DNA from: an uncultured Bacteriovoracaceae bacterium | GTDB lineage: Bacteria; Desulfobacterota; Desulfomonilia; UBA1062 | Reading direction: 5' to 3' | Assembly (NCBI GenBank): GCA_964513375.1 | Contig: CAZEMO010000003.1 | Location: 92,730-156,729, forward strand | DNA length: 64,000 nt | Part shown: positions 1,566-59,042 of the stretch, in pieces | Layout: the number at the start of each line of letters is the position of its first letter | How positions within the stretch are numbered: the stretch's first letter is position 1 | The notes under the pieces: generated by a model | The model's database searches: none | What the model was told of the DNA's origin: nothing | What the model saw: only the letters and a program-made list of their open reading frames with translations | Made by a program: the position numbers and the translations under genes

Positions 1566-3212
1566 TCAAATGCTTGCTGCGCTGTATGTCCTGTATCCCC
1601 CGTTTAAATTGTAGACTTTTTGGTATCCCTTCTGCATGAGAATCCTGCATGCTACATAAGCCCTCAGGCCGATCCCGCAGTATATAATTATCCTTTTATC
1701 CTTCGGTAATTCGTCAAGACGCCCCCTTAACTCATCCAGAGGTATGTTCACCGCATCATCAAGAAAATCCGCTGCAAACTCTATTGGCGTTCTGACATCA
1801 AGCAGTATTACGTCATCTGCGCCTTCAGGAATTTCGTTCCAATGAATGATTTTCACCTTGCCGCTCAGAATATTCTCGGCAACCATTCCCGCAACATTCA
1901 CCGGATCTTTCGCGGATGAAAACGGAGGGGCATACGCATGTTCGATAACCGAGAGATCATATATTGTCCCCTTATTCTTTATTGCGGACGCAATTAGGTC
2001 TATCCTCTTGTCCACTCCTTCTTCACCTGTGACCTGTGCGCCGTATATTGTACCGCCATCAGGTGAAAACAGCAGTTTGATAGAAAGCATGAAGGCCCCG
2101 GGATAGTAACCGGCATGAGAAAAACCATGCGTTATTGAAGAAATGTATTCGATGTTAGAAGCCTTGAGCAGGCGCTCCGTCACACCTGCGCATGCGCAGT
2201 TCAGGCCGAAAACCTTGACTATGGCGGTTCCGATCGATCCATCATATCTGCTGATATCTCCAAGCGCAATATTATCCGCAACTATCCTTGCCTCTTTGTT
2301 TGCCGGCCCTGCCAGAGGAATGGCTATGGGTTTGCCCAGAATCGGATGGATCATCTCGACCGCGTCTCCGAGCGCATATATGTGAGCGTCGGATGTGCGC
2401 ATGTATTCATCCACAATTATTCCTCCGCCAGGACCCATCTCGAGACCAGCCTCTTTTGCAAGGGAAGAGTCCGGCCTTACTCCTATTGAAAGGATTATCA
2501 TGTCCGCCTTCAGGTTCCTCCCGCCTTTGAGTTGCACTGACAGGCCGTTTTCATCTCGTCTCACAGAAACGACAGTTTCGCTCAATATGAGATTTACACC
2601 CTTCTGAATCATGTGCACTTTAGCGAGAGATGCCATGTCATAATCAAACGGGGGCAATACATGATCGAGCATCTCGACCACGCTTACTTTGATTCCAAGC
2701 TGCATAAGATTTTCCGCCGCTTCTAGACCTATGAAACCCGCGCCTATGACAACGGCATTCTTCGGCTTTCTTTCTTCTATGAATGCCTTTATCCTATCGG
2801 TGTCTCCGACTGAGCGGATCGTAAAAACCGCATCGTCGTCGAAGCCGCTGATGTCAGGGCGGAAAGGATATGCACCGGGTGACAGCACTATTTTGTCGTA
2901 TCTTTCAGTATATTCTCTCCCGGTTTTAAGATATCTAGCATAAACGGTTTTGGAGGTCCTATCGATAAAGGTCACCTCATTCTTTACGCGTACATCCAGG
3001 TTATATCTTGCCCTTAGCCCTTCGGCGCTTTGAACGAAAAGGCTCTCTCTGGCCGGTATCACGCCGCCTACATAATACGGCAGTCCGCAGTTCGCATAGG
3101 AGACATAATCATCCCTCTCAAAGATAATAATTTCTGCATTTTCGTCGAGCCGCCTGAGTCTGGCAGCAGTTGAGGCCCCTCCGGCCACTCCTCCTATGAT
3201 GAGATACCTCAT
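1566..3212 (-). CDS. CoA-disulfide reductase / NADH oxidase family flavoprotein with a C-terminal rhodanese domain (CoADR-RHD)
   Basis: N-terminal 'IIGGVAGGASTAARLRR' FAD fold and the redox Cys in 'SYANCGLPYYVGG'. The C-terminal rhodanese segment is 'DVRTPIEFAADF...IIIYCGIGLRAYVACRIL' with the active-site Cys loop. Confidence 0.9.
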   Translation of the reverse strand: MRYLIIGGVAGGASTAARLRRLDENAEIIIFERDDYVSYANCGLPYYVGGVIPARESLFVQSAEGLRARYNLDVRVKNEVTFIDRTSKTVYARYLKTGREYTERYDKIVLSPGAYPFRPDISGFDDDAVFTIRSVGDTDRIKAFIEERKPKNAVVIGAGFIGLEAAENLMQLGIKVSVVEMLDHVLPPFDYDMASLAKVHMIQKGVNLILSETVVSVRRDENGLSVQLKGGRNLKADMIILSIGVRPDSSLAKEAGLEMGPGGGIIVDEYMRTSDAHIYALGDAVEMIHPILGKPIAIPLAGPANKEARIVADNIALGDISRYDGSIGTAIVKVFGLNCACAGVTERLLKASNIEYISSITHGFSHAGYYPGAFMLSIKLLFSPDGGTIYGAQVTGEEGVDKRIDLIASAIKNKGTIYDLSVIEHAYAPPFSSAKDPVNVAGMVAENILSGKVKIIHWNEIPEGADDVILLDVRTPIEFAADFLDDAVNIPLDELRGRLDELPKDKRIIIYCGIGLRAYVACRILMQKGYQKVYNLNGGYRTYSAASI

Positions 3213-3235: not shown

Positions 3236-3817
3236 CTATTTTGCAGTCCCGCCTCCGCAGCATCCGACAGGCTTACCTCCGCCGCATGATACCTGAGATT
3301 TTGGATTATTTGAAGAGCCCGATGCAATGATTCTGAGCGCCATGGCTGCAGCCCTGCCTACGACATTCGAACAGTGGCCCGACATATCCTGTTTCATCGC
3401 CATGTTGGCGTCATCAGGAATTCTCAGGTTGAAGCTCCTGCCCATCAGCTTTTTTTGAATATCCGCACAGCGGCATGTCCCGTATTCAGATATGAAGTGT
3501 TCGTGAAGCTCTTTCGCAAGGTCGTAAGACTTGATTGCAGCCAGCGGGTCCTTGAATTCCAAGTATCCCCGGCCGAAGATAAGCCCTATTACCATGGCCC
3601 CTCCGGCAAGCGCGCCGCAGCTCCCGTCGCTGCTTAGTCCTATGCCGTCCGCCAGGCCGCTGGCCGCCTTGAATAGATCTTCGCTGTCAATATCAAGGAC
3701 CTCAAGAAGGGCTGCAACCGTGCTCTGGGCGCATCCTGTACAGGTTATCTCATATTCCTTTGCAATATCTCTGATCTTTTCAATATCCGCTTCTTTTATC
3801 AATTTAAGGTTTTTCAT
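3236..3817 (-). CDS. C_GCAxxG_C_C family putative redox-active protein with a Cys/Gly-rich C-terminal tail
   Basis: Motifs 'TCTGCAQSTVAALLEVL', 'SCGALAGGAMVIGLIFG', 'GTCRCADI' and 'GHCSNVVGRAAAMALRII' match the family layout. The tail is 'CGGGKPVGCCGGG'. Confidence 0.8.
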   Translation of the reverse strand: MKNLKLIKEADIEKIRDIAKEYEITCTGCAQSTVAALLEVLDIDSEDLFKAASGLADGIGLSSDGSCGALAGGAMVIGLIFGRGYLEFKDPLAAIKSYDLAKELHEHFISEYGTCRCADIQKKLMGRSFNLRIPDDANMAMKQDMSGHCSNVVGRAAAMALRIIASGSSNNPKSQVSCGGGKPVGCCGGGTAK

Positions 3818-3832
3818 GGATATTCCTCCGCA

Positions 3833-5131
3833 TCAGGCAAAATGCCACGGCTCTTTCGGTGAAAATAATATTTTATCACCCGAGACCCGTTTACGATAGC
3901 CGTTCTCGTCCAGAATCCTGGTTACAAGCACATTAGGTCTTGACGGGAAAGGAAGGCTCTTCTTGAACTTTGCCTCCGCCGTATCGAGTTTAAAGAGTTC
4001 CTCGACGATCTGTTTTACTGTAGCTTCTCCGAGCCTTGCATGAGTTTCGAGCACATCCCTCCTCAATCCCGAATAGTATTTCTCGAACGTTGAGAAGAAT
4101 GTTATGCACTCATCCTCTCCTCTGGCGCAATCCTCCAGCTGAACGGGATTGAACACCTCAATATTCAGCATGCTCAATGCATCCTTGAAAAAGGCTTTGC
4201 TCCTGTGCGCATCTGAAGCGAGCGAAACAAAACCCTGTTCTGCCATGCGCCTTAATCCTCTCACTGCGGTTATGCATTTTTCAAATGAGCTGTCGAAGAA
4301 TGGTGGATTTATCTCGACCGTGACGTCCCCGCTCAATAAAAGGCGGTTCTGCGGATCATAAAGGCATATGTGCCCGGGACTGTGAGATCCGTCATGAATG
4401 ACAAAGAAGCGACCGACCTGCCAACCCATGAATTCGGTATCGCCGAATGACCTTCTCTCGCGGCTCGAAAGCGGTAAAATTTCAGCCCTTTCGGCAAGGT
4501 TTCTCTTGTTTCCAATCAAGACGCGGTCTATGAGCAGTTTCAGGGCCATCCTGTAATCCTCGTAGCTTGAATCTGGCCTAAGCTCCGACAGGTATTTCCA
4601 TACCAGCGCATATTGGGGCTCTTCATATTCTTTGAAATTTCTGGCGTATATTTCTATCTCCTGAAGAATATCCTTCCAGGACTCGTACGGATTGAAGAAT
4701 GCCTCGAGTTTTCTGAAGTCGCCGAGCCAGTGATATGCGCTATCTATTACCGGGACCTCCGGTTCGGGCAGGAGGAACCGCACGGTCTTGAAACCGGCAT
4801 CAAGTACCAGATCGTTGTTCAGCGCATGGTCCCAGTGCCCCTGAGTGTCCATGAGTACAAGATTACCGCAGCCTGCGGCCGAATATTTTCTGAGCACTTC
4901 GAGTATCCTCTGCCTGTAGAAAGGCTGCATGCCAGAGTCCAGCATGAATACTGTGTCCCTATCTCTCAATATGTAGACATTGCTGGACGGCGGTGCGAGA
5001 AAAAAAGAAAAGCCTGCAAAACCTTCGATCTGCCAGATATCCGGGGCGATCTCCTTGACGGCTGATCTGGCAAACGCCTCTTCCATATCAGGGAAACAAA
5101 AAGGATGAAGCTTCGGACAACTTTCTTTCAT
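3833..5131 (-). CDS. Metallo-beta-lactamase-fold hydrolase (432 aa) with an uncharacterised C-terminal extension of about 140 aa
   Basis: Core motifs are 'FMLDSGM', 'DTQGHWDH' (an HxHxDH-like motif) and 'HDGSHSPGH'. GGAGG lies 6 nt before the ATG. Confidence 0.75.
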   Translation of the reverse strand: MKESCPKLHPFCFPDMEEAFARSAVKEIAPDIWQIEGFAGFSFFLAPPSSNVYILRDRDTVFMLDSGMQPFYRQRILEVLRKYSAAGCGNLVLMDTQGHWDHALNNDLVLDAGFKTVRFLLPEPEVPVIDSAYHWLGDFRKLEAFFNPYESWKDILQEIEIYARNFKEYEEPQYALVWKYLSELRPDSSYEDYRMALKLLIDRVLIGNKRNLAERAEILPLSSRERRSFGDTEFMGWQVGRFFVIHDGSHSPGHICLYDPQNRLLLSGDVTVEINPPFFDSSFEKCITAVRGLRRMAEQGFVSLASDAHRSKAFFKDALSMLNIEVFNPVQLEDCARGEDECITFFSTFEKYYSGLRRDVLETHARLGEATVKQIVEELFKLDTAEAKFKKSLPFPSRPNVLVTRILDENGYRKRVSGDKILFSPKEPWHFA

Positions 5132-5167
5132 GGTATACCTCCATTATTCGTATTTGCCCATATATGG

Positions 5168-5184
5168 AGCAAGTCTCATGCCAG
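5168..5184 (-). promoter_or_regulatory. Sigma-54 (-24/-12) promoter reading toward the MBL-fold / C_GCAxxG / CoADR-RHD operon
   Basis: The minus strand reads TGGCAT-GAGAC-TTGCT. GG and GC are spaced exactly as in the TGGCACG-N4-TTGC consensus. The predicted transcription start is about 25 nt upstream of the ATG at 5131. An enhancer-binding regulator gene lies divergently, adjacent. Confidence 0.5.
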
Positions 5185-5275
5185 CAGTGATATCTTTTTA
5201 TCTTATTGTTTTTATATAATTATATTACATTTATTTTTTATATTTATTTTTTATTGACGTTATTGGGTCATTATA

Positions 5276-8200
5276 ATGTCCATATATTGCCATTTAACAT
5301 TGCAGTACGTTGTAAATGATGATATCCGTTATCGCGGTATGGGAAAAGAGAACATAAAAAAAGACGGGTATAAACTGTCGCCTGAGCAATTAAAGATGCT
5401 CGCTTTCCTGAATGCGGTTCGAACACAGGTACATATAGATACTGTCGCTGCAATAGTTCAAATACGACCTGCCTCTCTGATTGCACTGATCAATGATGGA
5501 ATACATTCAGGATATCTTGAAGAGACACAGAAGGACGTATACTCTCTTACGGCTGATCTCCCTTCATGGATAGAGTCCGGCATCAGGATAGTCGCTGACA
5601 ACAACTTCTTCCATTCTCTTCTCGGATCGATAGAAAGCATTCAGGCTGCAGACCTGCTTCCAACAAGGTCAATGGCGGCGATTCTTGAGGGTGCGGGCAG
5701 AATGTATGAGGCGGCGTTTGCATACCATGACTCCGCATCGAAATACCTCTTGGAAGACAGCGTGGAAAATAGTCTTGAATGCGAACTGGCTGCCATAGAA
5801 ATACTCAAAAAGGAGAAGTCCTCGAAACACAGAAATTCGCTTTTCGTATCTGCAGTGATGGGACTTTCGGGTCTCTACATACGCCTCTCTCAGGCCCATC
5901 CGGAAATCATCACTCTTCTCAGGGTCGCCAGAAAGATAGCCCTCGGCATGGGCGACAGGAGGTCTTCGGTAATAATAGACCTGCATCTGGGGCGCTACTA
6001 CTTCATGAGCAACAAGCTCTCTGAAACCCTTGATGCCCTGCATAAGGCCGTCGAAGAGCTCGACGGGTTCATGGATGACGATATGAGGGATCAGGCAGGG
6101 CAGTTCGTAGGTCTTTATTATTATCTTCAGGGCAAGTATGAAGATGCGGCCGAGCATCTTGGCAAGGCAATCCATACATCTTCCAATTCACTTTACGGGG
6201 CACCAGATAATATACTGCTTCTGTTCTATGCATTCAGCTGCGCCTGCACCGGGCAGTTTCACAAGGCTATAGGCATCCTAGATGCGGGATGGCGCCGGAC
6301 TTTCAACGCTTCCAAATTCGAACAGACTTTCCATGCAAGGGCGCTCCTCGGATATATTCTTCTGTTGTGCGGAAAGAAGGATGAAGCCCTCGAACATCTC
6401 AAGGCGTCCAGATTTTATGAATGGAAAAACCCGAATGCATTCGGCAGGTGGATCACTGAGGCAGGCTTTGCCATGGAGGCATTCAGGTCAGGGCGCATAA
6501 AGGAAGCGCATGACATACTCATAAATCTTCTTTCAGAAGATATCCACATAAGACAATATCCGGTGCCCGCATTCTTCGAGATGCTTGCCGAATTTGACAG
6601 AAGGAAATATCCGGCAATAATGAACATCTCCTATGAACAGGAGAGACTCCGAATCCTGAAGGGCCCCAATGTTCATCTGAAAGGGGCGGCCTTCAGGATT
6701 ATGGCTCAGAATGTTTCATCGGCTTCTCCTGCAAGTCCTCTGATTGCGAGATATCTCTCGGAAAGCGAGAGGAATCTCGTCTCATCCGGAGATCCGGTGG
6801 AACTGGCCAAGACATACGCCGAGTTTGCAAGATACTATATCCGCAGAAAAAAGAAGGAAAAGGCATCGGAATATGCGATAAAGGCATGGGAGAGCTTTTC
6901 AGGCCTCGGGGACATATACCTTACCGATGATATAAAAAACCTGCTTACCGGCGAAATAAAATCCAGGCCTACGACCGTCGCTCGCGATGACATAACGGCG
7001 AGACTTGTAAAAATGATTGGCGACATCATACCCTCATATGATTCCGACAGCCTTTTCGACAAAGTGCTCGAGGCTATAACCGGATTTCTAAAAGCCGAGC
7101 GCTCTGCTCTGTTTCTCTTCACCAGAGAACAGGGAAAAGCACCGACATTGAAGGCTTCTCAATCCATATCTAAAGACGAGGTCAATGCACCCCCGTTCCA
7201 CAGCGCACTTTCACTGATATTCTCAGCAAGAAAAGTCAAGATGCCCGTATATAAAACACTGACTGACTATAACGGCATTGAGCGCACTGTATTATGCATA
7301 CCGGTAAATGCAGGGCCGGATTTCGATGGCGTCATGTATTTTGAATCCCTTTTCATCGCAGACGCAATGACAGACACGTCAGGTACTGTACCCGGCCTGC
7401 TCATGGATATAGCGGGCGATGCCTTTGCAAAGATAATGAGGCTTGAAACTGCAAGGAACATAACAAAATCATTACCATGTGAAGACATACATCCCTCAGA
7501 CAACAAAGATGATGAAATCATCGCAAAAAGCAGCGTAATGACCGGAATGCTCTCAGAGTTGGACAAGGCAGCCGCAACTGACGCCTCGATTCTTGTAACC
7601 GGAGAAACAGGCACAGGAAAAGAACTTATCGCCAGGCGCATACATAATAGGAGCATGCGTGCGGGAGGCCCCTTTATTACAGTCAACATCGCCGGCATAC
7701 CGGAAACACTCATAGAAAGTGAGCTGTTCGGGAATGAAAAGGGTGCTTTCACAGGGGCAGATTCACGTCACATAGGAAGAATAGAACTGGCCCACACAGG
7801 GACGCTTTTCATAGACGAGCTCGGTGAGATCCCTCTTTCAGTACAGATCAAACTCCTTCGAGTTCTCCAGGATGGGACCTTCAACCGCCTGGGTGGTGGA
7901 AGAAGCATAAAGTCCGATTTCAGACTTGTCACCGCTACAAACAAAGACCTTGAGGCCGAGGTCGAGAAAGGGGGTTTCCGCAGAGACCTGTTCTACAGGA
8001 TCAACACCTTTCATATCCGCGTACCGCCGCTTCGAGAGCGGAAAATCGATATCGTACTTATTTCTGAAGCTTTCATCAGGCACTTCACAAAAGAATTCAA
8101 CAAACCTTACGTCGAGCTTTCGCGGGAACAGCAAGAGGCTCTATTGAATTATCCATGGCCCGGCAATGTCAGAGAATTGAGAAACGTGATCGAACGCAGC

Positions 8201-8434
8201 ATCCTGCTGTCGGACAAAAATTCCATCGAACTCGCCCTTCCGGTATTGCATAATCAGGAACATAAGGACATCTTCTCCGGCACCCCTACCCTCGATGAAC
8301 TTCAAAGACGCTACATAAAACAAGTGATTGAGATGGCAGGGGGAAGAATCTCCGGGAAGAACGGCGCTTCCGCAATCCTTGGAATCAAAAGAACGACATT
8401 GAACGCAAGGATGAAGAAACTGGGCATCCGTTGA
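5276..8434 (+). CDS. Sigma-54-dependent transcriptional activator (enhancer-binding protein, EBP) with a large N-terminal TPR-like region, a GAF domain, an AAA+ sigma-54 interaction domain and a Fis-type HTH
   Basis: AAA+ motifs 'GETGTGKELIARRIH', 'ESELFGNEKGAFTGA' (GAFTGA) and 'ELGEIPLSVQIKLLRVLQDG'. C-terminal HTH 'GKNGASAILGIKRTTLNARMKKLGI'. The real start may be the ATG at 5339, because a TATAAT box overlaps the ATG at 5276. Confidence 0.9.
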   Translation: MSIYCHLTLQYVVNDDIRYRGMGKENIKKDGYKLSPEQLKMLAFLNAVRTQVHIDTVAAIVQIRPASLIALINDGIHSGYLEETQKDVYSLTADLPSWIESGIRIVADNNFFHSLLGSIESIQAADLLPTRSMAAILEGAGRMYEAAFAYHDSASKYLLEDSVENSLECELAAIEILKKEKSSKHRNSLFVSAVMGLSGLYIRLSQAHPEIITLLRVARKIALGMGDRRSSVIIDLHLGRYYFMSNKLSETLDALHKAVEELDGFMDDDMRDQAGQFVGLYYYLQGKYEDAAEHLGKAIHTSSNSLYGAPDNILLLFYAFSCACTGQFHKAIGILDAGWRRTFNASKFEQTFHARALLGYILLLCGKKDEALEHLKASRFYEWKNPNAFGRWITEAGFAMEAFRSGRIKEAHDILINLLSEDIHIRQYPVPAFFEMLAEFDRRKYPAIMNISYEQERLRILKGPNVHLKGAAFRIMAQNVSSASPASPLIARYLSESERNLVSSGDPVELAKTYAEFARYYIRRKKKEKASEYAIKAWESFSGLGDIYLTDDIKNLLTGEIKSRPTTVARDDITARLVKMIGDIIPSYDSDSLFDKVLEAITGFLKAERSALFLFTREQGKAPTLKASQSISKDEVNAPPFHSALSLIFSARKVKMPVYKTLTDYNGIERTVLCIPVNAGPDFDGVMYFESLFIADAMTDTSGTVPGLLMDIAGDAFAKIMRLETARNITKSLPCEDIHPSDNKDDEIIAKSSVMTGMLSELDKAAATDASILVTGETGTGKELIARRIHNRSMRAGGPFITVNIAGIPETLIESELFGNEKGAFTGADSRHIGRIELAHTGTLFIDELGEIPLSVQIKLLRVLQDGTFNRLGGGRSIKSDFRLVTATNKDLEAEVEKGGFRRDLFYRINTFHIRVPPLRERKIDIVLISEAFIRHFTKEFNKPYVELSREQQEALLNYPWPGNVRELRNVIERSILLSDKNSIELALPVLHNQEHKDIFSGTPTLDELQRRYIKQVIEMAGGRISGKNGASAILGIKRTTLNARMKKLGIR

Positions 8435-8468: not shown

Positions 8469-9095
8469 TTACTCCAGAAGACTCTGCACACATTGGACTG
8501 CGGTAAAAGCATCCGGCGCATAACCGCTGGCACCGATTTTATCTGCAAATTCCTGAGTCACCGGAGTACCGCCCACGATAATTCGTGCTGCCGGATCAAT
8601 TGCCCTTATGGCATCTATCGTCTTCTTCATATTGAGCATGGTTGAGCTCAAAAGTGCTGACAGCCCAAGTATATCCGGTTTCATGTTTTTATAGGCCTCA
8701 ACGAATCTCTCTGTTTTAATGCCTTCTCCCAGATCAACAACCTCATAGCCTGCCCCTTCAATGCACATCCGGACAAGGTTCTTGCCGATGGAATGAATAT
8801 CTCCCTCCACCGTTCCCAGCACCACCTTACCCCGATCTTTAATCTCACCCTTAAAACGTGCTTTCAGACAAACCAACCCCTCTTCCATTGCATGAGCCGC
8901 AACAATCAACTCAGGAATAAAGGCCTCTCCCTGGGCGAAACGCTCACCTATCTCCTCCATGGCCGGCATCATTGCCTGTTCCAGAATTTCCCGCGGTGTC
9001 ATCCCATTATTAATTGCCTCTTCCAAAAGAGAAGTTATTCTTTCATCATCCCCTGACTGAACAGCATTTTTGATATCTTCCAGCGTTTTTATCAT
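8469..9095 (-). CDS. Cobalamin-binding corrinoid protein (MtaC/MtbC-like)
   Basis: N-terminal B12-binding-2 helical cap and the Rossmann B12 domain with the DxHxxG motif 'EGDIHSIGKN'. Confidence 0.85.
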   Translation of the reverse strand: MIKTLEDIKNAVQSGDDERITSLLEEAINNGMTPREILEQAMMPAMEEIGERFAQGEAFIPELIVAAHAMEEGLVCLKARFKGEIKDRGKVVLGTVEGDIHSIGKNLVRMCIEGAGYEVVDLGEGIKTERFVEAYKNMKPDILGLSALLSSTMLNMKKTIDAIRAIDPAARIIVGGTPVTQEFADKIGASGYAPDAFTAVQCVQSLLE

Positions 9096-9115
9096 TGCCT
9101 TTCTCCTTTAATGTT

Positions 9116-10213
9116 TCAAACCTTAATGGGATATGTCCCGTATTTATGCGCCGCCCTCACCATAGCCAGATAATTTTCCGGTTTGCATCCCGGATGTATG
9201 GAGTTGGATGAGCTAATGATGTAGCCTCCGCCGGGTGCAGCTTTGGCTATTGTTTCCTTGACGGTCTGCTCCACTTCTTCCTCTGTTCCGAATGGCAGGA
9301 GATATGTGCAATCGATATTCCCCAGAAGACAAAGGCGGTCTTTATATCCGGCCTTAACCTCTCCTATGTCCATGCACTGGGGCTGATTGGGGTGGAAACC
9401 GTCAAAACCAGCCTCTGCTATATCGTCAAGAATGGGCCCCATATTCCCGTCCGAATGCTTGATGATTTTTAGCCCCCGTTCATGGGCGCGAGCCACTATC
9501 TCCTTATGGAACGGAAAGATGAATTGCCTGTATTGAGCGGGAGACATAAGCGTGGTCTGGTTGAATGCAAGATCGCCATCCAGTGCGAAAACGTTCGCCC
9601 CGAGCGCCGCGGCTTTATCGACCACCTCAAGTATGTAGTCAGTTACGATTCGTCCGAGATCCAGAACGAAAGAAGGCTTTTTTATGTAGTAGAACAAAAG
9701 CTTTTCCATACTGCCCAGAAGCGACCAGCTTTCCCTGAAAGGTCCAGGCTGTACAAACACCTGTGCAGTATCGCCGCCCATGCCGCCGGTTGACGCCATA
9801 AGCATGAGAAAATCCATGTCCTGGGGATGATATATCTTGAGATTTTTGAGGTCATCAGGTCCGGATATTGGCCCCCCCACGGAGGTCGCCTCACCTTCTC
9901 CGGCTACATACAGAACACGGCCCCAGCCATCCCTGTAGTGCGTCTCGTCTATTTTCTCCGTAACAGGCAGCGTGATCGAAGTAAGACCATCCAGCTCCAG
10001 AGCCTTGGCAAACGTAAACAGTGTATTGAGAAGCTTGATTTTTTCCTCCATGGTCATCTGGCTTGCGAATTTCATAGGCGGCAGGTCATCAGTGAAGAAT
10101 CTCCCGATCTTGATAATCGATTCTTCATTAAAAGCCATCTCCCAAACCGGAACCCGGTCAGGTTCTCTGCGGTCCAAAGCCGTCAGCATTCTTTCTTTTC
10201 CTGTCATATACAT
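9116..10213 (-). CDS. Uroporphyrinogen decarboxylase (URO-D) family methyltransferase (MtaA/CmuA-like, corrinoid-dependent)
   Basis: 'MLTALDRREPDRVPVWEMAFNEE' and overall URO-D-like TIM-barrel signature. The start was set at an ATG preceded by GAGGG. Confidence 0.8.
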   Translation of the reverse strand: MYMTGKERMLTALDRREPDRVPVWEMAFNEESIIKIGRFFTDDLPPMKFASQMTMEEKIKLLNTLFTFAKALELDGLTSITLPVTEKIDETHYRDGWGRVLYVAGEGEATSVGGPISGPDDLKNLKIYHPQDMDFLMLMASTGGMGGDTAQVFVQPGPFRESWSLLGSMEKLLFYYIKKPSFVLDLGRIVTDYILEVVDKAAALGANVFALDGDLAFNQTTLMSPAQYRQFIFPFHKEIVARAHERGLKIIKHSDGNMGPILDDIAEAGFDGFHPNQPQCMDIGEVKAGYKDRLCLLGNIDCTYLLPFGTEEEVEQTVKETIAKAAPGGGYIISSSNSIHPGCKPENYLAMVRAAHKYGTYPIKV

Positions 10214-10328
10214 ACCCTCTCTTGCTAATTGGATTTTGTATAACAATTTTAAATCCCTGCATTACTTGATGGCTTTTGTCAAATGTTTCAGCAGTTTTTT
10301 ACTTCTCATCTACTATTTTTTTAAATGA

Positions 10329-10405: not shown

Positions 10406-12250
10406 ATGAAGAAATCTTATTATTTAATACCTTTTATCAGTTTAGCTTTGATTCTGAGCGGATGCATACTTTCCAAGTCGCCTTCCACTGATTCAGTTTC
10501 CATGAATCTCGGCGATCACCAAGTATTCAGCGTGAAAATCTTTCCGTCTAAAGCAGTATATACCTGGACTCTGGATGGAGCGGCTTTGCCTAACACAGGG
10601 AATTCTTTTATTTACACAGCACAAGCCGGGCAACACTTTCTTACTGTCCGGGCAAAGCACAGTTTAGGCACTGATACCCAGTCCTGGGATATCACTACCT
10701 TTAACACTGCGCCGGTTGCCAGTGCGGGCCCTGATCAAACAGTATCAGTTAATACCAATGTAACCTTAAATGGCTCCGGCTCTTTTGACCAGGATAACAA
10801 CATTGTTTCTTATCAGTGGCAGCAGATAGACGGTCCTTCAGTAGAGCTGAACAATGCATATACTGCCATTGCAAATTTTACAGCATCTGTTGCAATAGGG
10901 TCCACTTTGACCTTCAGGCTGATCATTATAGATGCCGATGGACTTCAGTCAACCGATACATGTTCCGTTACAGTTGAGCAGCTAAACCATAATCCAATCG
11001 CCAATGCCGGCCCTGATCAATCAGTTATTGCAAATGCAACTGTAGTTTTGAATGGCTCCGGCTCTTTTGATCCTGATAATAATATTGTTTCTTATCAGTG
11101 GCAGCAGATATACGGACCTTCCGTTACCCTTAACGATGCAGACACTGCCATTGCAAGCTTTACAGCATCTGTCGAATCTGATTCTACACTGTTGTTTATG
11201 CTGACAGTTACAGATGCTGACGGACTACAGTCAACTGATACATGCTCTGTCACAGTTCCGCAGCCAAACCAGAGCCCTGTCGCTAATGCCGGTCCTGATC
11301 AGAGTGTTTCTGTAAATTCGACCGTTACTCTCTATGGCGCAGGTTCAACCGACCCGAATAATGACATTGTTTCTTATCACTGGCAGCAGAAAAGCGGGAC
11401 TTATCCATATGTAACTCTGACTAATGCGGAAACGGCCATTGCACAGTTCACAGCTACGGTTCCAATAGGAAGAGTACTGACATTTGAGCTTACTGTGACT
11501 GATGCGACAGGACTTCAATCGACAGATTCCTGTGATGTGTCAGTCTCTGTGATCAGTTCTCCTATCACCGACTTGCTTAATTCCATGATCTATCTTCCTG
11601 CCGGTACTTTCATGATGGGCAGAGAGGGCGAATATGCAGCCACCCCTGTCCATCAGGTGAACGTGCAGGGATTCGGAATCGGTGCATACGAGGTAACCCA
11701 GGCACAGTATAAGGCGGTAATGGGTGAGAATCCCTCATATTACCAGGGGCCGAGTTACCCTAACAGCGAAAACAGGCCGGTTGAACTGGTAAGCTGGGAT
11801 AATGCACGCGAATTCTGCGCCGCCCTGTCTGCCGTCACGGGACGAAACTTCACATTGCCGAGTGAAGCCCAGTGGGAATATGCCTGCAGGGCCGGGTCTG
11901 ATACCCTTTTCAGCTTCGGAGATGATGATTCACTGCTTGGCAATTATGCCTGGTACATTTTGAATTCAGGCAATCAGACGCATTACGTCGGCACAAAACT
12001 TCCAAACGCGTGGGGGCTCTACGACATGCACGGCAACGTCTCTGAATGGTGTCTGGATTCATGGCATGAAGATTATACCGGGGCTCCGTCTGACGGCAGC
12101 GCCTGGGAGCCTGATGCCGGTATCGATAGGGTTCTTCGTGATAACTCCTTTGCTTTCTCCGCGAGTGATTTGCATTTGGCGCGTCGTACTTACTCACATC
12201 AGTACACCGGTACCAATAGTTGGGGGTTCCGCATAGTCGAAATCCCTTAA
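10406..12250 (+). CDS. Lipoprotein with an N-terminal paralog-shared module, three PKD domains and a C-terminal FGE-sulfatase (DUF323 / SUMF1-like) domain
   Basis: Lipobox 'LILSGC'. Three repeats of 91 aa carry 'AGPDQxV...LNGSGSFDxDNNIVSYQWQQ'. The C-terminal domain carries 'LPAGTFMMG', 'RPVELVSWDNAREFC', 'LPSEAQWEYACRAG' and 'WGLYDMHGNVSEWC'. The FGE catalytic Cys pair is absent. Confidence 0.85.
   Translation: MKKSYYLIPFISLALILSGCILSKSPSTDSVSMNLGDHQVFSVKIFPSKAVYTWTLDGAALPNTGNSFIYTAQAGQHFLTVRAKHSLGTDTQSWDITTFNTAPVASAGPDQTVSVNTNVTLNGSGSFDQDNNIVSYQWQQIDGPSVELNNAYTAIANFTASVAIGSTLTFRLIIIDADGLQSTDTCSVTVEQLNHNPIANAGPDQSVIANATVVLNGSGSFDPDNNIVSYQWQQIYGPSVTLNDADTAIASFTASVESDSTLLFMLTVTDADGLQSTDTCSVTVPQPNQSPVANAGPDQSVSVNSTVTLYGAGSTDPNNDIVSYHWQQKSGTYPYVTLTNAETAIAQFTATVPIGRVLTFELTVTDATGLQSTDSCDVSVSVISSPITDLLNSMIYLPAGTFMMGREGEYAATPVHQVNVQGFGIGAYEVTQAQYKAVMGENPSYYQGPSYPNSENRPVELVSWDNAREFCAALSAVTGRNFTLPSEAQWEYACRAGSDTLFSFGDDDSLLGNYAWYILNSGNQTHYVGTKLPNAWGLYDMHGNVSEWCLDSWHEDYTGAPSDGSAWEPDAGIDRVLRDNSFAFSASDLHLARRTYSHQYTGTNSWGFRIVEIP
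10709..11557 (+). repeat. Three tandem in-frame repeats of about 273 nt (the PKD domains) inside the lipoprotein gene
   Basis: Near-identical stretches such as 'ggctccggctcttttga...attgtttcttatcagtggcagcagata' recur at 273-nt spacing. Confidence 0.8.
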
Positions 12251-55764: not shown

Positions 55765-56262
55765 TTATTCTGCCTTTTTGTCTTTTTTTTCAGGTACAAA
55801 AAAGGTGTAGATCAGAAGACCTACCATGCCGACTGAGATATACATGTCGGCGACATTGAATGTAGGCCATCGGTATGTTAATATATGGACGTTGATGAAG
55901 TCCACCACCTCATTATGAACAATCCTGTCCGTCAGGTTTCCGATTGCCCCTGCAAGTATAAGGCAGAGTATAGCCTTCAATATCAGAGAGTCATCGTTGG
56001 ACTGCTTGAAAATAATAAATATGGCTACTATGGCAACTACTGTCACCGTAAGGAAGAAAACAAGCCTGTATGAATCGGGTATGTCCTGCAAAAGACCGAA
56101 TGCAACCCCCGTGTTCCTTACATGTATGATCTCGAAATAGTTGGGAATTACGGTTATGCTGTCCCCTATCTGCATTCTTGTCAGTATTATCCATTTCGTT
56201 ACTTGATCTATCAGATAGAGGGGGAACATCATCAGAAGCCCCCACTTCAAATATGATTTCAT
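55765..56262 (-). CDS. lspA: Lipoprotein signal peptidase II
   Basis: 'NTGVAFGLL' and 'FNVADMYISVG'. The start ATG overlaps the ileS stop codon (ATGA). Confidence 0.85.
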   Translation of the reverse strand: MKSYLKWGLLMMFPLYLIDQVTKWIILTRMQIGDSITVIPNYFEIIHVRNTGVAFGLLQDIPDSYRLVFFLTVTVVAIVAIFIIFKQSNDDSLILKAILCLILAGAIGNLTDRIVHNEVVDFINVHILTYRWPTFNVADMYISVGMVGLLIYTFFVPEKKDKKAE

Positions 56263-59042
56263 GTCAGCTGGGAAGCGCATCTTGCACATACCTCCGGGTG
56301 ATTTTGATTAGCACCTACATCTTTGCTGTAGTTCCAGCACCTGGGACACTTTATACCTGTAGATTTTGAAACCGAAATACCAAGCTGCTTGAAGCTTTCG
56401 CTTTCAATAAAGGGGCCATCACCCTTTGCTACTTCTACTTCGGATACGATAAATATATCCTTCAGGAAACCTTTGACCGATTCAACGAAAGTAAAAGTTT
56501 CGCCATCGGCAGCAATCTTCACAACCGCATCAAGCGGATGTCCGATAATCTTATCGCGTCTGGCTTGTTCCATAGTCTTAGATACTTCCTGCTTGAGGGC
56601 TATAATTTTCTCCCATTTCCCTGCCAGGGCATCATCCTTATTGGCTTTTTCAACAACAGGCATAGCCGAAAGGTGCACACTTGCTTCCTTGCCTTCAAAA
56701 GCGGGCATGTAATCCCATATCTCTTCAGCCGTGAATGATAAAATCGGCGCAACAAGCTTCGTGAGGCTGGAAAGAATATTGAAGAGCGCTGTCTGTGCAG
56801 AACGTCTTTCTATACTGTCTTTCTTGTAGACATACAGCCGGTCCTTCAAGATATCGAGGTAAAAGGCGCTCATATCCACGACGCAGAAATTATAAATCTG
56901 CTGGTAGATGGCATAGGGCTCGAAATCATCATAAGCCTTCCTGACCTTTTCAATAAGATCCTGCAGCAGATGAAGGGCGTAGCGGTCCAGTTCGAGCATA
57001 TCGGAATACGCTACAGTGTCTTTTCCCGGGTTAAAATCAGAAAGGTTGCCTAATATGAACCTGACCGTATTCCTTATCTTGCGGTATGTCTCGACGAGCC
57101 GGTCAACTATTTCATTTGAAATGCGTATGTCGTTTGTATAGTCCTGGGCGCTGACCCACAGCCTTAAAACCTCTGCGCCGTATTTGTCTATTATTTCCTG
57201 CGGGGCTATGGTGTTGCCAAGCGATTTGGACATCTTGCGGCCTTCGCCGTCCACAACGAATCCATGCGTGAGCACAGATCGGTAAGGGGCATCTCCTCTT
57301 GTTCCTACAGAGCACAGCAGGGTCGAATGGAACCACCCCCTGTGCTGGTCAGAACCCTCCAGATACATATCAACCGGCGAGCCTATCCTTTCGTCCTTTT
57401 CACATACCGCCGCATAGCTTACGCCTGAATCAAACCATACATCGACAATGTCCTGCTCTTTTTCAAACTCTTCGGATGAACAGTTCGGGCATTTGGTCCC
57501 TTTGGGCAAAAGCTCTTCCGCTTTTAAAGCAAACCAGGCGTCAGAACTTTTTTCAGCGAATATATTCGCAACATTTTCAGCCGCTTCGCCTGAAATCAGG
57601 ACCTCGTTGCATGATTTGCAATAAAAGACCGGAATTGGAATACCCCAATCTCTCTGACGTGAGATGCACCAGTCAGGTCTGTTCAAAATCATGTTGTATA
57701 TCCTGTCACGGCCCCATCCAGGTATCCAGCGCACTTTATCGATTGCCTTTAATGCTTTTTCGCGGAGGCCGTCATGTTCCATTGAGATAAACCACTGCCA
57801 TGTAGAGCGAAAAATGATAGGGCTCTTGCAGCGCCAGCAATAAGGGTAGGAGTGGGAATATTTATCTTCATTAAGCAAAGTGCCCTTCTCAGACAGCACC
57901 CTGTTAACATTCGGATTTGCATCGAAGACGAACTGGCCTGCGAAACCTTCAACATCTTTTGTAAACCTGCCGTCATTATCGACCGGTGCATAAACTTCAA
58001 GTCCGTACTGTTTCCCTATCTCATAGTCTTCTTCGCCGTGGCCAGGTGCGATATGAACACATCCCGAACCGGTATCAAGGGTTACAAATGGTGCATTGAT
58101 AATCAACGAATCACGCTCATAAATAGGATGACAGGCCTTCATGCCTTCAAGCGCCTCACCCTTGAATACTGCAAGGGTCTTATATTCGTTTACTCCTGAT
58201 GCTTTCATGACACTTTCAACCAGTTCTGAAGCCATAATCAGGACATCAAACCTGTCTGTCTTGACAGCCGAATATTCCATGTCAGGATGCAGGGCTATGG
58301 CCAGGTTAGCCGGTATCGTCCATGGGGTTGTGGTCCATATTACGACATAGATATTCTCCCCTTTAAGTTCCGGTATAATTCCGGAGACATCCGTTGTCAT
58401 TTTAAACCTGACAAATATGGCGGGCGTTACCTGATCATGATATTCAACCTCGGCTTCAGCGAGCGCTGTTTTACACTTTGCGCACCAGTAAACAGGCTTT
58501 CTAGCCTTATAAAGCGATCCTGCAGAAATGAACCTTCCAAGCTCATGGGCAATAGACGATTCGTATTCATTTTTCATCGTAAGATACGGGTCTTCCCAAA
58601 GGCCGAGAACCCCAAGCCTTTTGAATTCATCTCTCTGTATGCCTATGAACTTTTCCGCATATTTCCTGCATTCTTTCCTGATATCAAGCTTGCTGAGCTC
58701 GACTTTCTTCTCTCCCATGTTTATTTCGACCTGATGCTCTATCGGAAGGCCGTGGCAATCCCATCCGGGCTTGTAAAAGGTATCGTATCCCATCATGAAA
58801 AAGGACTTGACGATTATATCCTTTAAGATTTTGTTGAGTGCGGTCCCAAGGTGTATATGGCCATTGGCATATGGAGGTCCGTCATGAAGTATGAACTTTC
58901 TCCTGCCTTTGGATTTTTCAATAATCTTATGATAGAGTTCTGTTTCTTCCCAACGATGAAGAAGCTCAGGCTCTTTTTTTGTAAGGCTCGCCTTCATGGG
59001 AAATGCAGTTTGCGGCAGACAAAGCGTATCCTTGTAATCCAT
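56259..59042 (-). CDS. ileS: Isoleucyl-tRNA synthetase
   Basis: 'PYANGHIHLGT' (HIGH), 'KMSKS' and a C-terminal zinc knuckle 'CPRCWNY...CARC'. Confidence 0.95.
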   Translation of the reverse strand: MDYKDTLCLPQTAFPMKASLTKKEPELLHRWEETELYHKIIEKSKGRRKFILHDGPPYANGHIHLGTALNKILKDIIVKSFFMMGYDTFYKPGWDCHGLPIEHQVEINMGEKKVELSKLDIRKECRKYAEKFIGIQRDEFKRLGVLGLWEDPYLTMKNEYESSIAHELGRFISAGSLYKARKPVYWCAKCKTALAEAEVEYHDQVTPAIFVRFKMTTDVSGIIPELKGENIYVVIWTTTPWTIPANLAIALHPDMEYSAVKTDRFDVLIMASELVESVMKASGVNEYKTLAVFKGEALEGMKACHPIYERDSLIINAPFVTLDTGSGCVHIAPGHGEEDYEIGKQYGLEVYAPVDNDGRFTKDVEGFAGQFVFDANPNVNRVLSEKGTLLNEDKYSHSYPYCWRCKSPIIFRSTWQWFISMEHDGLREKALKAIDKVRWIPGWGRDRIYNMILNRPDWCISRQRDWGIPIPVFYCKSCNEVLISGEAAENVANIFAEKSSDAWFALKAEELLPKGTKCPNCSSEEFEKEQDIVDVWFDSGVSYAAVCEKDERIGSPVDMYLEGSDQHRGWFHSTLLCSVGTRGDAPYRSVLTHGFVVDGEGRKMSKSLGNTIAPQEIIDKYGAEVLRLWVSAQDYTNDIRISNEIVDRLVETYRKIRNTVRFILGNLSDFNPGKDTVAYSDMLELDRYALHLLQDLIEKVRKAYDDFEPYAIYQQIYNFCVVDMSAFYLDILKDRLYVYKKDSIERRSAQTALFNILSSLTKLVAPILSFTAEEIWDYMPAFEGKEASVHLSAMPVVEKANKDDALAGKWEKIIALKQEVSKTMEQARRDKIIGHPLDAVVKIAADGETFTFVESVKGFLKDIFIVSEVEVAKGDGPFIESESFKQLGISVSKSTGIKCPRCWNYSKDVGANQNHPEVCARCASQLT

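Follow-up and report, generated by a model that had tools for sequence, protein, structure and literature searches.

Positions 5276–8434 of a 64,000-nt stretch of DNA from an uncultured Bacteriovoracaceae bacterium (contig CAZEMO010000003.1; the whole stretch is hereafter called the window) hold an open reading frame (ORF) for a sigma-54 enhancer-binding protein with an exceptionally long N-terminus. This locus raises the question of which genes the regulator controls and what its N-terminal region contributes to that control. An earlier interpretation made from the letters of the window, hereafter the sequence-only reading, regarded the protein as the likely dedicated regulator of the operon on the opposite strand. 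We conclude that it is probably a one-component activator of this divergent operon, which would act from two upstream sites under the control of its own sensor.

The activator gene and the control region

The gene and its C-terminal domains are arranged as follows.

5276..8434, plus strand: maximal ORF, uninterrupted, 1052 codons from the first ATG
5339..8434, plus strand: probable coding sequence of the bacterial enhancer-binding protein (bEBP), 1031 aa, based on the N-termini of homologues and the conserved upstream site
7517..8236, plus strand: sigma-54 interaction AAA+ domain and lid, aa 748–987, Pfam
7601–7624, plus strand: Walker A, within the AAA+ domain
7742–7759, plus strand: GAFTGA, within the AAA+ domain
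7805–7819, plus strand: Walker B, within the AAA+ domain
8288..8422, plus strand: Fis-type helix-turn-helix (HTH), aa 1005–1049, recognition helix KRTTLNARMKKLG

The activator had been given as a 1052-aa protein. The ORF at 5276–8434 is indeed present as one gene, but the true start is most likely ATG 5339 (M22; 1031 aa), 21 codons downstream of the first ATG, because the N-termini of homologues, the NCBI-annotated P0003 included, line up with M22 in the alignment, and because the conserved upstream site 2 (5277–5292, see below) overlaps the ATG at 5276–5278. The 63 nt of 5276–5338 thereby contain a conserved regulatory site.

A Pfam scan recovered the AAA+ domain and the Fis HTH that the sequence-only reading had named: Sigma54_activat (PF00158) at aa 748–914 (E 1.7e-65), AAA_lid_14 at aa 920–987 and the Fis-type HTH_8 at aa 1005–1049, the latter with 23.5 bits against a cutoff of 22. 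Walker A (GETGTGKE, aa 776–783), the GAFTGA loop (aa 823–828) and Walker B (LFIDE, aa 844–848) are all intact. The AAA+ domain with these motifs and the HTH, with a promoter and upstream sites nearby, assign the protein to the bEBPs, and it is predicted to activate sigma-54 transcription in an ATP-dependent manner. In three homologues of a Smithella-like clade (P0021, P0024 and P0029; alignment A1), the GAFTGA motif is degenerate (GAYAAA, GASAAA, GAFPAA) while the remaining AAA+ domain is kept, and these proteins may be unable to contact sigma-54 in the usual way.

The region between the regulator and the divergent operon contains the following elements.

5168..5183, minus strand: sigma-54 promoter (−24 GG / −12 GC), TGGCATGAGACTTGCT, the sole exact match to TGGCAY-N5-TTGCW in the 64-kb window
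5184..5254, no strand: spacer from the promoter to the upstream sites, 71 nt, 89% A+T versus 54% for the window
5255..5270, no strand: putative upstream activating site 1, TGACGTTATTGGGTCA, palindrome TGAC-N8-GTCA, centre at about −105
5277..5292, no strand: putative upstream activating site 2, TGTCCATATATTGCCA, centre at about −127, 22 nt from site 1

The gene was expected to lie head-to-head with the sigma-54 promoter of the divergent operon, and the exact consensus at 5168–5183 on the minus strand is found there, 37 nt upstream of the ATG of the first operon gene (3833–5131) with a GGAGG in between. Shuffled sequence gave 0.22 matches to TGGCAY-N5-TTGCW per window, and a match on the correct strand within this 150-nt interval is therefore very unlikely by chance. 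Transcription is predicted to start near position 5157, which leaves 26 nt to the ATG at 5131. The equivalent promoters of related loci are located 36–39 nt from the ATG of the corresponding gene in L002, L004, L012 and L003 and 51 nt from it in L005.

We compared the upstream sites among six regulator loci (the window, L002, L004, L012, L003 and L005), whose regulators are 32–100% identical in the N-terminal region. When the loci were anchored on the promoter 16-mer, the sites were located at +87 to +102 and +109 to +124 in all of them, with the consensus TGACC-N6-GGTCA. The sites of L002 and L004 are similar to those of the window; those of the other loci, and of a further one (L015), read as follows.

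L012: site 1 AGACCATATTGGGTCA, site 2 TGACCTTATACGGTCA
L003: site 1 TGACCAAAATAAGTCT, site 2 TGACCTTATATGGTCA
L005: site 1 TGGCAAAATATGGTCA, site 2 CGACCTGATATGGTCA
L015: TGACTAAATAAGATCG and TGTCCATATATGGTCA, with the 22-nt spacing and the 71-nt gap to the promoter found elsewhere

The 71-nt length of the spacer is kept in seven loci, and the intergenic DNA of L003, L005 and L015 is otherwise unalignable to that of the window. The two-site arrangement thus makes a good phylogenetic footprint of the putative activator sites, and the site centres at about −105 and −127 fall in the range usual for enhancer sites. Moreover, the recognition helix of the HTH reads KRT(T/S)LN(A/G)R in the loci with TGACC-N6-GGTCA and LY(S/H)R in four loci with other palindromes, a co-variation that fits the HTH reading the sites.

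Three points weigh against this interpretation of the control region. The sites common to the three closest loci count for little as independent evidence, since these loci have a common descent; the independent cases are L012, L003, L005 and L015. The co-variation of helix and site follows phylogeny. Finally, the spacer of the window contains no match to the IHF consensus when one mismatch is allowed, and the matches in the relatives were inconsistent.

With these points taken into account, activation of the divergent operon through the two sites remains the probable course. In this mechanism, a one-component bEBP of about 1031 aa would bind with its Fis-type HTH, probably as dimers, to the two 16-bp palindromic sites upstream of the operon promoter. 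The active AAA+ domains would form a ring, loop across the A+T-rich 71-nt spacer and, at the expense of ATP, open the sigma-54 closed complex by means of the GAFTGA loop. Binding of the HTH to both sites is a prediction.

A further element, TGCCCATATATGGA, lies at 5155–5168 between the −12 element and the operon ATG, near the predicted transcription start. Its complementarity to site 2 (over 5279–5292) amounts to 86%, and it repeats the core of this site; it is kept in L004/L014 and not in L002. The regulator could have a third, promoter-proximal site here.

A divergent operon with a constant first gene

The operon facing the regulator comprises three genes.

3833..5131, minus strand: metallo-beta-lactamase (MBL)-fold protein, first operon gene, 432 aa, with QGHWDH replacing HxHxDH
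3236..3817, minus strand: C_GCAxxG_C_C putative redox protein, second gene, 193 aa
1566..3212, minus strand: coenzyme A (CoA)-disulfide/persulfide reductase with a C-terminal rhodanese domain, third gene, 548 aa, Pfam

The product of 1566–3212 carries the Pfam domain Pyr_redox_2, dimerisation domains and a C-terminal rhodanese domain, and matches the structures of Bacillus anthracis CoADR-RHD (3icr, E 8e-170), Shewanella Npsr (3nta, E 8e-156) and a CoA-persulfide reductase (8a56, E 2e-150) in the PDB. Its TIGR03385 score of 463 is under the equivalog cutoff of 579. We assign it as a CoA-disulfide reductase (CoADR)-rhodanese or persulfide reductase of putative substrate specificity. The AlphaFold2 model of the MBL-fold protein reached a mean predicted local distance difference test (pLDDT) value of 92.6, and Foldseek returned alkylsulfatases, PqsE and LACTB2 at a TM-score of about 0.5, which is non-specific. 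NCBIfam gave no match for the function of this protein, and a sequence search of the PDB gave only weak glyoxalase-II-like matches. One homologue, P0202 (604 aa), is a natural fusion of the MBL fold with a C_GCAxxG_C_C domain, which supports the first two operon genes working together.

The regulator and the MBL gene are head-to-head in eight distinct loci: the window, L001/L002, L004, L012, L003, L005, L015 and L016, with L014 counted together with L004 as the two are the same in the stretch read. L015 and L016 were reached via MBL homologues (54% and 43% identical, respectively), and in both an enhancer-binding protein (EBP) of the family, 1044–1046 aa in length, is encoded opposite the MBL operon; in L016 one flavoprotein gene intervenes between the regulator and the MBL gene. 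This pairing, with the promoter and the two sites at identical offsets in six loci and the same spacing in L015, gives the proposal of a dedicated regulator of the divergent operon strong support from comparison.

The content of the operon varies among the loci. In the near clade the MBL partner is constant (430–440 aa), and the C_GCAxxG_C_C protein is usually encoded next to it. L001/L002, L004 and L012 carry the same three operon genes opposite the regulator. In L003, whose regulator is 52% identical, the MBL gene shares the operon with genes for thiolase, a large Fe-S flavoprotein, acyl-CoA synthetase, SCP2 and a methyltransferase; in L005 (regulator 32% identical), it is accompanied by genes for the C_GCAxxG_C_C protein, SCP2, acyl-CoA dehydrogenase, acyl-CoA synthetase and thiolase. 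More distant family members face operons with DUF2148, SDR, thiolase, acyl-CoA synthetase or acyl-CoA dehydrogenase genes. In L013, which carries a short member of the family, the regulator is likewise divergent from its neighbouring operon, here one for thiolase, acyl-CoA synthetase and an ABC transporter, and the locus has a large palindrome of its own. The regulator is divergent from an operon in all family loci examined, and most of these operons have a GG-N10-GC element upstream.

Judging from these arrangements in the relatives, the family regulates divergent catabolic operons, with the MBL gene as the constant partner in the near clade. The name 'sulfur-redox operon' given by the sequence-only reading suits the third gene, a CoADR-rhodanese gene, but not the conserved core, which consists of the MBL and C_GCAxxG_C_C genes; the third gene is confined to the closest loci and is absent from the more distant ones. 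Acetone strongly induces a C_GCAxxG_C_C protein (ORF 04510) of Desulfococcus biacutus, whose gene is clustered with those for thiolase, enoyl-CoA hydratase and an alcohol dehydrogenase (PMC4103992), a further link of the C_GCAxxG_C_C family to acyl-CoA-type catabolism rather than to sulfur chemistry.

The N-terminal module and its possible signal

To describe the N-terminal region, we used an AlphaFold2 model of aa 22–745 built from a 16-sequence alignment (mean pLDDT 82.6; predicted TM-score 0.79). Three parts were distinguished.

5381..5548, plus strand: winged-helix-like domain, aa 36–91 (ORF numbering), three helices and a beta hairpin, AlphaFold2
5564..6949, plus strand: TPR-like alpha-solenoid, aa 97–558, about 24 helices, AlphaFold2
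6971..7471, plus strand: divergent GAF domain, aa 566–732, AlphaFold2 and profile matches

The sensory region thus comprises about 720 aa and not the 600 aa or so first estimated. The description of its N-terminus as helical and TPR-like, lacking a receiver or PAS domain, agrees with both Pfam and the model but had overlooked the winged-helix-like start. This part corresponds to residues 15–70 of the model (pLDDT about 85–91), and its label refers to the modelled topology, with no match to a sequence family. Upstream of aa 748, Pfam detected no REC, PAS, V4R or GAF domain in the window protein. A short linker of low confidence connects the solenoid with the GAF domain, in which a helix and a six-stranded sheet are followed by a long exit helix that runs into the AAA+ domain. 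The GAF domain had been placed directly before the AAA+ domain, and it was recovered there by several lines of evidence: the modelled fold; the match of family profile positions 546–713 to the solved GAF domains of CyaB2 (1ykd, E 4e-5) and 4mcw (E 1.6e-4); and homologues whose scores in the aligned region exceed the Pfam GAF cutoff. C674, within the LCIPV of this domain, is nearly invariant in the family alignment.

In the solenoid of about 460 aa, the Pfam TPR matches of the window protein are sub-threshold (aa about 279–375; the best, TPR_10, at 25.2 bits against 27.5), and homologues exceed the TPR_12 cutoff (35–40 bits against 30.1). Several motifs in the solenoid are invariant in the family, namely GDRRS (226–230), GDxD, GQFHxAIG (326–333), NVHLKG (465–470; NVHL(K/R)G in its family form) and SGDPVELAKT (504–513). 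The invariant polar residues R229, D267, D269, H467, R474 and S497 suggest a conserved binding or contact surface and not a plain scaffold. Redox-sensing cysteines were considered as a family feature and rejected, as C322-x-C324 is restricted to the near clade in the alignment.

A search with aa 1–740 retrieved an identical protein in NCBI/Logan together with 28 relatives; almost all of them are 1014–1067 aa long and carry the same C-terminal domains as the window protein. They originate from Desulfomonilia, Smithella, Syntrophobacteraceae and unclassified deltaproteobacterial metagenome-assembled genomes (MAGs), the taxonomic spread being read from MAG names, and their full-length alignment has a mean column identity of 52%. 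We also scanned 1.84 billion cluster representatives (clusters at 50% identity) with an N-terminal profile using HMMER. At least 382 clusters matched at E≤1e-30, and the best 150 of the 382 were almost all 1010–1080 aa long or obvious fragments. A scan of genome contigs with the single protein yielded one close relative, L014 (75% identity), which is labelled as an uncultured Bacteriovoracaceae MAG. The window protein is thus no oddity and is assigned to a family of hundreds of clusters, which the databases name 'sigma-54 dependent transcriptional regulator' or 'transcriptional regulator with GAF, ATPase, and Fis domain'. Our literature search found no paper on an EBP with a TPR-type sensor, nor on this family. 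A subclass of 910–960 aa (P0017, P0020, P0023, P0026 and P0028; L013:7001–9784) lacks the first ~120 residues and with them the winged-helix-like part.

How the 720-aa module sets the activity of the motor can be proposed by analogy. The module, with its winged-helix-like part, TPR-like solenoid and GAF domain, most likely keeps the AAA+ domain inactive, as in the intramolecular repression of NorR, until a cytoplasmic small molecule binds. XylR/DmpR is another example of this kind of repression. The signal would be linked to the substrate of the operon and might be an organic acid, a thioester or a CoA-related compound; this sign of control, a repression relieved by ligand, is taken from the known systems. 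More tentatively, the module could work as a true ligand receptor in the manner of the TPR sensors of MalT or NprR, here joined to a sigma-54 motor. In that case the family would form a one-component regulator class that is new and widespread among syntrophic and sulfate-reducing Desulfobacterota, and each of its members would sense the substrate of its divergent catabolic operon.

The solenoid might instead serve as a docking platform for a partner protein, either an anti-activator or a signal carrier, as in NifL-NifA and PspA-PspF, with the signal entering via the GAF domain or the partner. TPR repeats commonly mediate protein–protein contacts, the best sequence-profile and Foldseek matches of the solenoid are protein-binding TPRs (Pins/LGN, OGT and APC subunits), and the invariant polar patches could make a protein interface. 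However, in the loci examined no conserved candidate gene for a partner lies beside the regulator: only the MBL gene is constant, and this gene encodes the first product of the promoter. The sensor is also fused in cis in every full-length member, and we regard docking as a doubtful explanation.

Sensing by the GAF domain alone, as in NorR, NifA and FhlA, would leave the winged-helix-like and TPR parts for assembly, dimerisation or extra DNA contacts. The GAF domain does adjoin the AAA+ domain through a long helix, which is the arrangement of known GAF-EBPs, and the winged-helix-like part is evidently dispensable for the basic function of the family, since the short subclass does without it. 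This explanation is nevertheless unlikely, for the solenoid has more invariant polar positions than the GAF domain, the latter is so divergent that Pfam misses it in the window protein, and the 460 aa of conserved solenoid are kept by all family members listed.

It is still less likely that the signal is reactive sulfur (persulfide, polysulfide or CoA persulfide) and that the regulator runs a sulfur-detoxifying operon, in effect like FisR/CstR. The closeness of the third gene to the CoADR-rhodanese, Npsr and CoA-persulfide reductase structures speaks for such a role, as does the putative redox nature of the C_GCAxxG_C_C protein; MBL-fold enzymes include persulfide dioxygenases. The MBL protein of the window, however, carries QGHWDH and does not specifically match persulfide dioxygenases, and CoADR-rhodanese occurs in the closest loci only. 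L003 and L005 keep the regulator, the geometry of the upstream activating sites and the MBL gene together with thiolase, acyl-CoA synthetase, acyl-CoA dehydrogenase and SCP2 genes, and the C322-x-C324 of the near clade is missing from P0006, which shares the MBL partner and the upstream sites.

That the long ORF is an artefact of two joined genes or has its real start far downstream is almost certainly wrong: the regulator gene of L012 is in two pieces (639 + 384 aa; L012:7001–10097), but in this only split copy the break falls at an A7 homopolymer, the assembly being a long-read metagenome, and the GAF sequence resumes in the next frame, more than 100 representatives are contiguous at 1010–1080 aa and conserved over their whole length, and the AlphaFold2 model of the N-terminal region is confident and continuous. 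The L012 split is probably a sequencing frameshift and possibly a pseudogene. As relatives are contiguous at similar length, the long N-terminus is a family trait and no gene-calling accident, and a separate upstream gene, a result that would have spoken against the sequence-only reading, finds no support.

Several other genes of the window were inspected. The genes at 8469–10246 on the minus strand, for a corrinoid (B12-binding) protein and a URO-D/MtaA-like methyltransferase, were rejected as targets of the regulator, being convergent with it and kept only in the closest loci (present in L001/L002 and L004, not in L012, L003 and L005); they are probably unrelated to it. In the 614-aa protein encoded at 10406–12250 on the plus strand, three PKD-type domains precede an FGE-sulfatase (sulfatase-modifying-factor-like) domain, and 33–1301 on the plus strand encodes the C-terminal portion of a P-type cation ATPase, truncated by the window edge. 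The 927-aa ORF at 56259–59042 was rejected as a paralogue, having no similarity to the regulator.

Significance and comparison with known systems

No larger sets of sigma-54 activators are known than those of Desulfobacterota, with as many as 69 in one genome, and the EBP repertoires of Thermodesulfobacteriota (Desulfobacteria class) are very large (PMC12316311). A new sensor type in this group is thus plausible rather than startling. Most sensor domains and signals of these activators are uncharacterised, and the family described here couples a large, conserved, undescribed sensor to acyl-CoA-type catabolic operons in uncultured anaerobes (Desulfomonilia and Smithella-like syntrophs). In the present clade the divergent operon includes an uncharacterised pair of MBL-fold and C_GCAxxG_C_C enzymes. 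The regular control region, with its promoter, 71-nt spacer and two sites 22 bp apart, offers a ready reporter design that could reveal the inducer and thereby the substrate of these enzymes. The regulator could also become a new ligand-controlled sigma-54 switch; the understanding of sigma-54 activation itself is unchanged by the finding.

Among the known activators, NorR, NifA and FhlA share with the window protein the order of GAF, sigma-54 AAA+ domain with GAFTGA and Fis-type HTH, and the one-component logic. The likeness to norR-norVW extends to the gene arrangement, in which the regulator gene is divergent from a target operon for an MBL-like protein and a pyridine-nucleotide-disulfide oxidoreductase. 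Unlike these three proteins, the window protein has about 540 extra N-terminal residues and a highly divergent GAF domain. The NCBIfam models (NifA, NorR, FhlA, PrdR and others) matched its AAA+/HTH part only, all far below their cutoffs; the equivalog scores were 320 against 528.85 for NifA, 311 against 476 for NorR and 304 against 830 for FhlA, and only about aa 717–1051 were covered. We therefore take it to be no equivalog of NifA, NorR, FhlA or any other NCBIfam-defined activator.

The solenoid invites comparison with the RRNPP receptors (NprR, Rap and AimR) and with sensor domain III of MalT. Identity to these is 9–12%, and Foldseek did not rank them. In contrast to RRNPP proteins, the window protein has no XRE-type HTH and its output is a sigma-54 AAA+ motor; no cognate peptide gene for RRNPP-type signalling was identified. 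RRNPP receptors are known as a Bacillota group, whereas the present family occurs in Desulfobacterota-type MAGs. As for the MalT/LAL STAND regulators, Pfam detected no NB-ARC, NACHT or AAA_16 in the N-terminal part, the HTH is of the Fis type and not the LuxR type, and TPR_MalT is sub-threshold in homologues (28.3 against 45). Because the defining HTH and NTPase parts are missing, we assign the protein to neither the RRNPP nor the MalT type.

XylR/DmpR, PrpR, AcoR and AtoC are substrate-sensing bEBPs encoded divergently from sigma-54-driven catabolic operons. Their sensors are V4R, PrpR_N, PAS/GAF or REC, and these domains were not detected in the window protein by Pfam and NCBIfam. It nevertheless resembles these regulators in its divergent layout, and a substrate or intermediate that relieves N-terminal repression is likewise the likely logic of its control.

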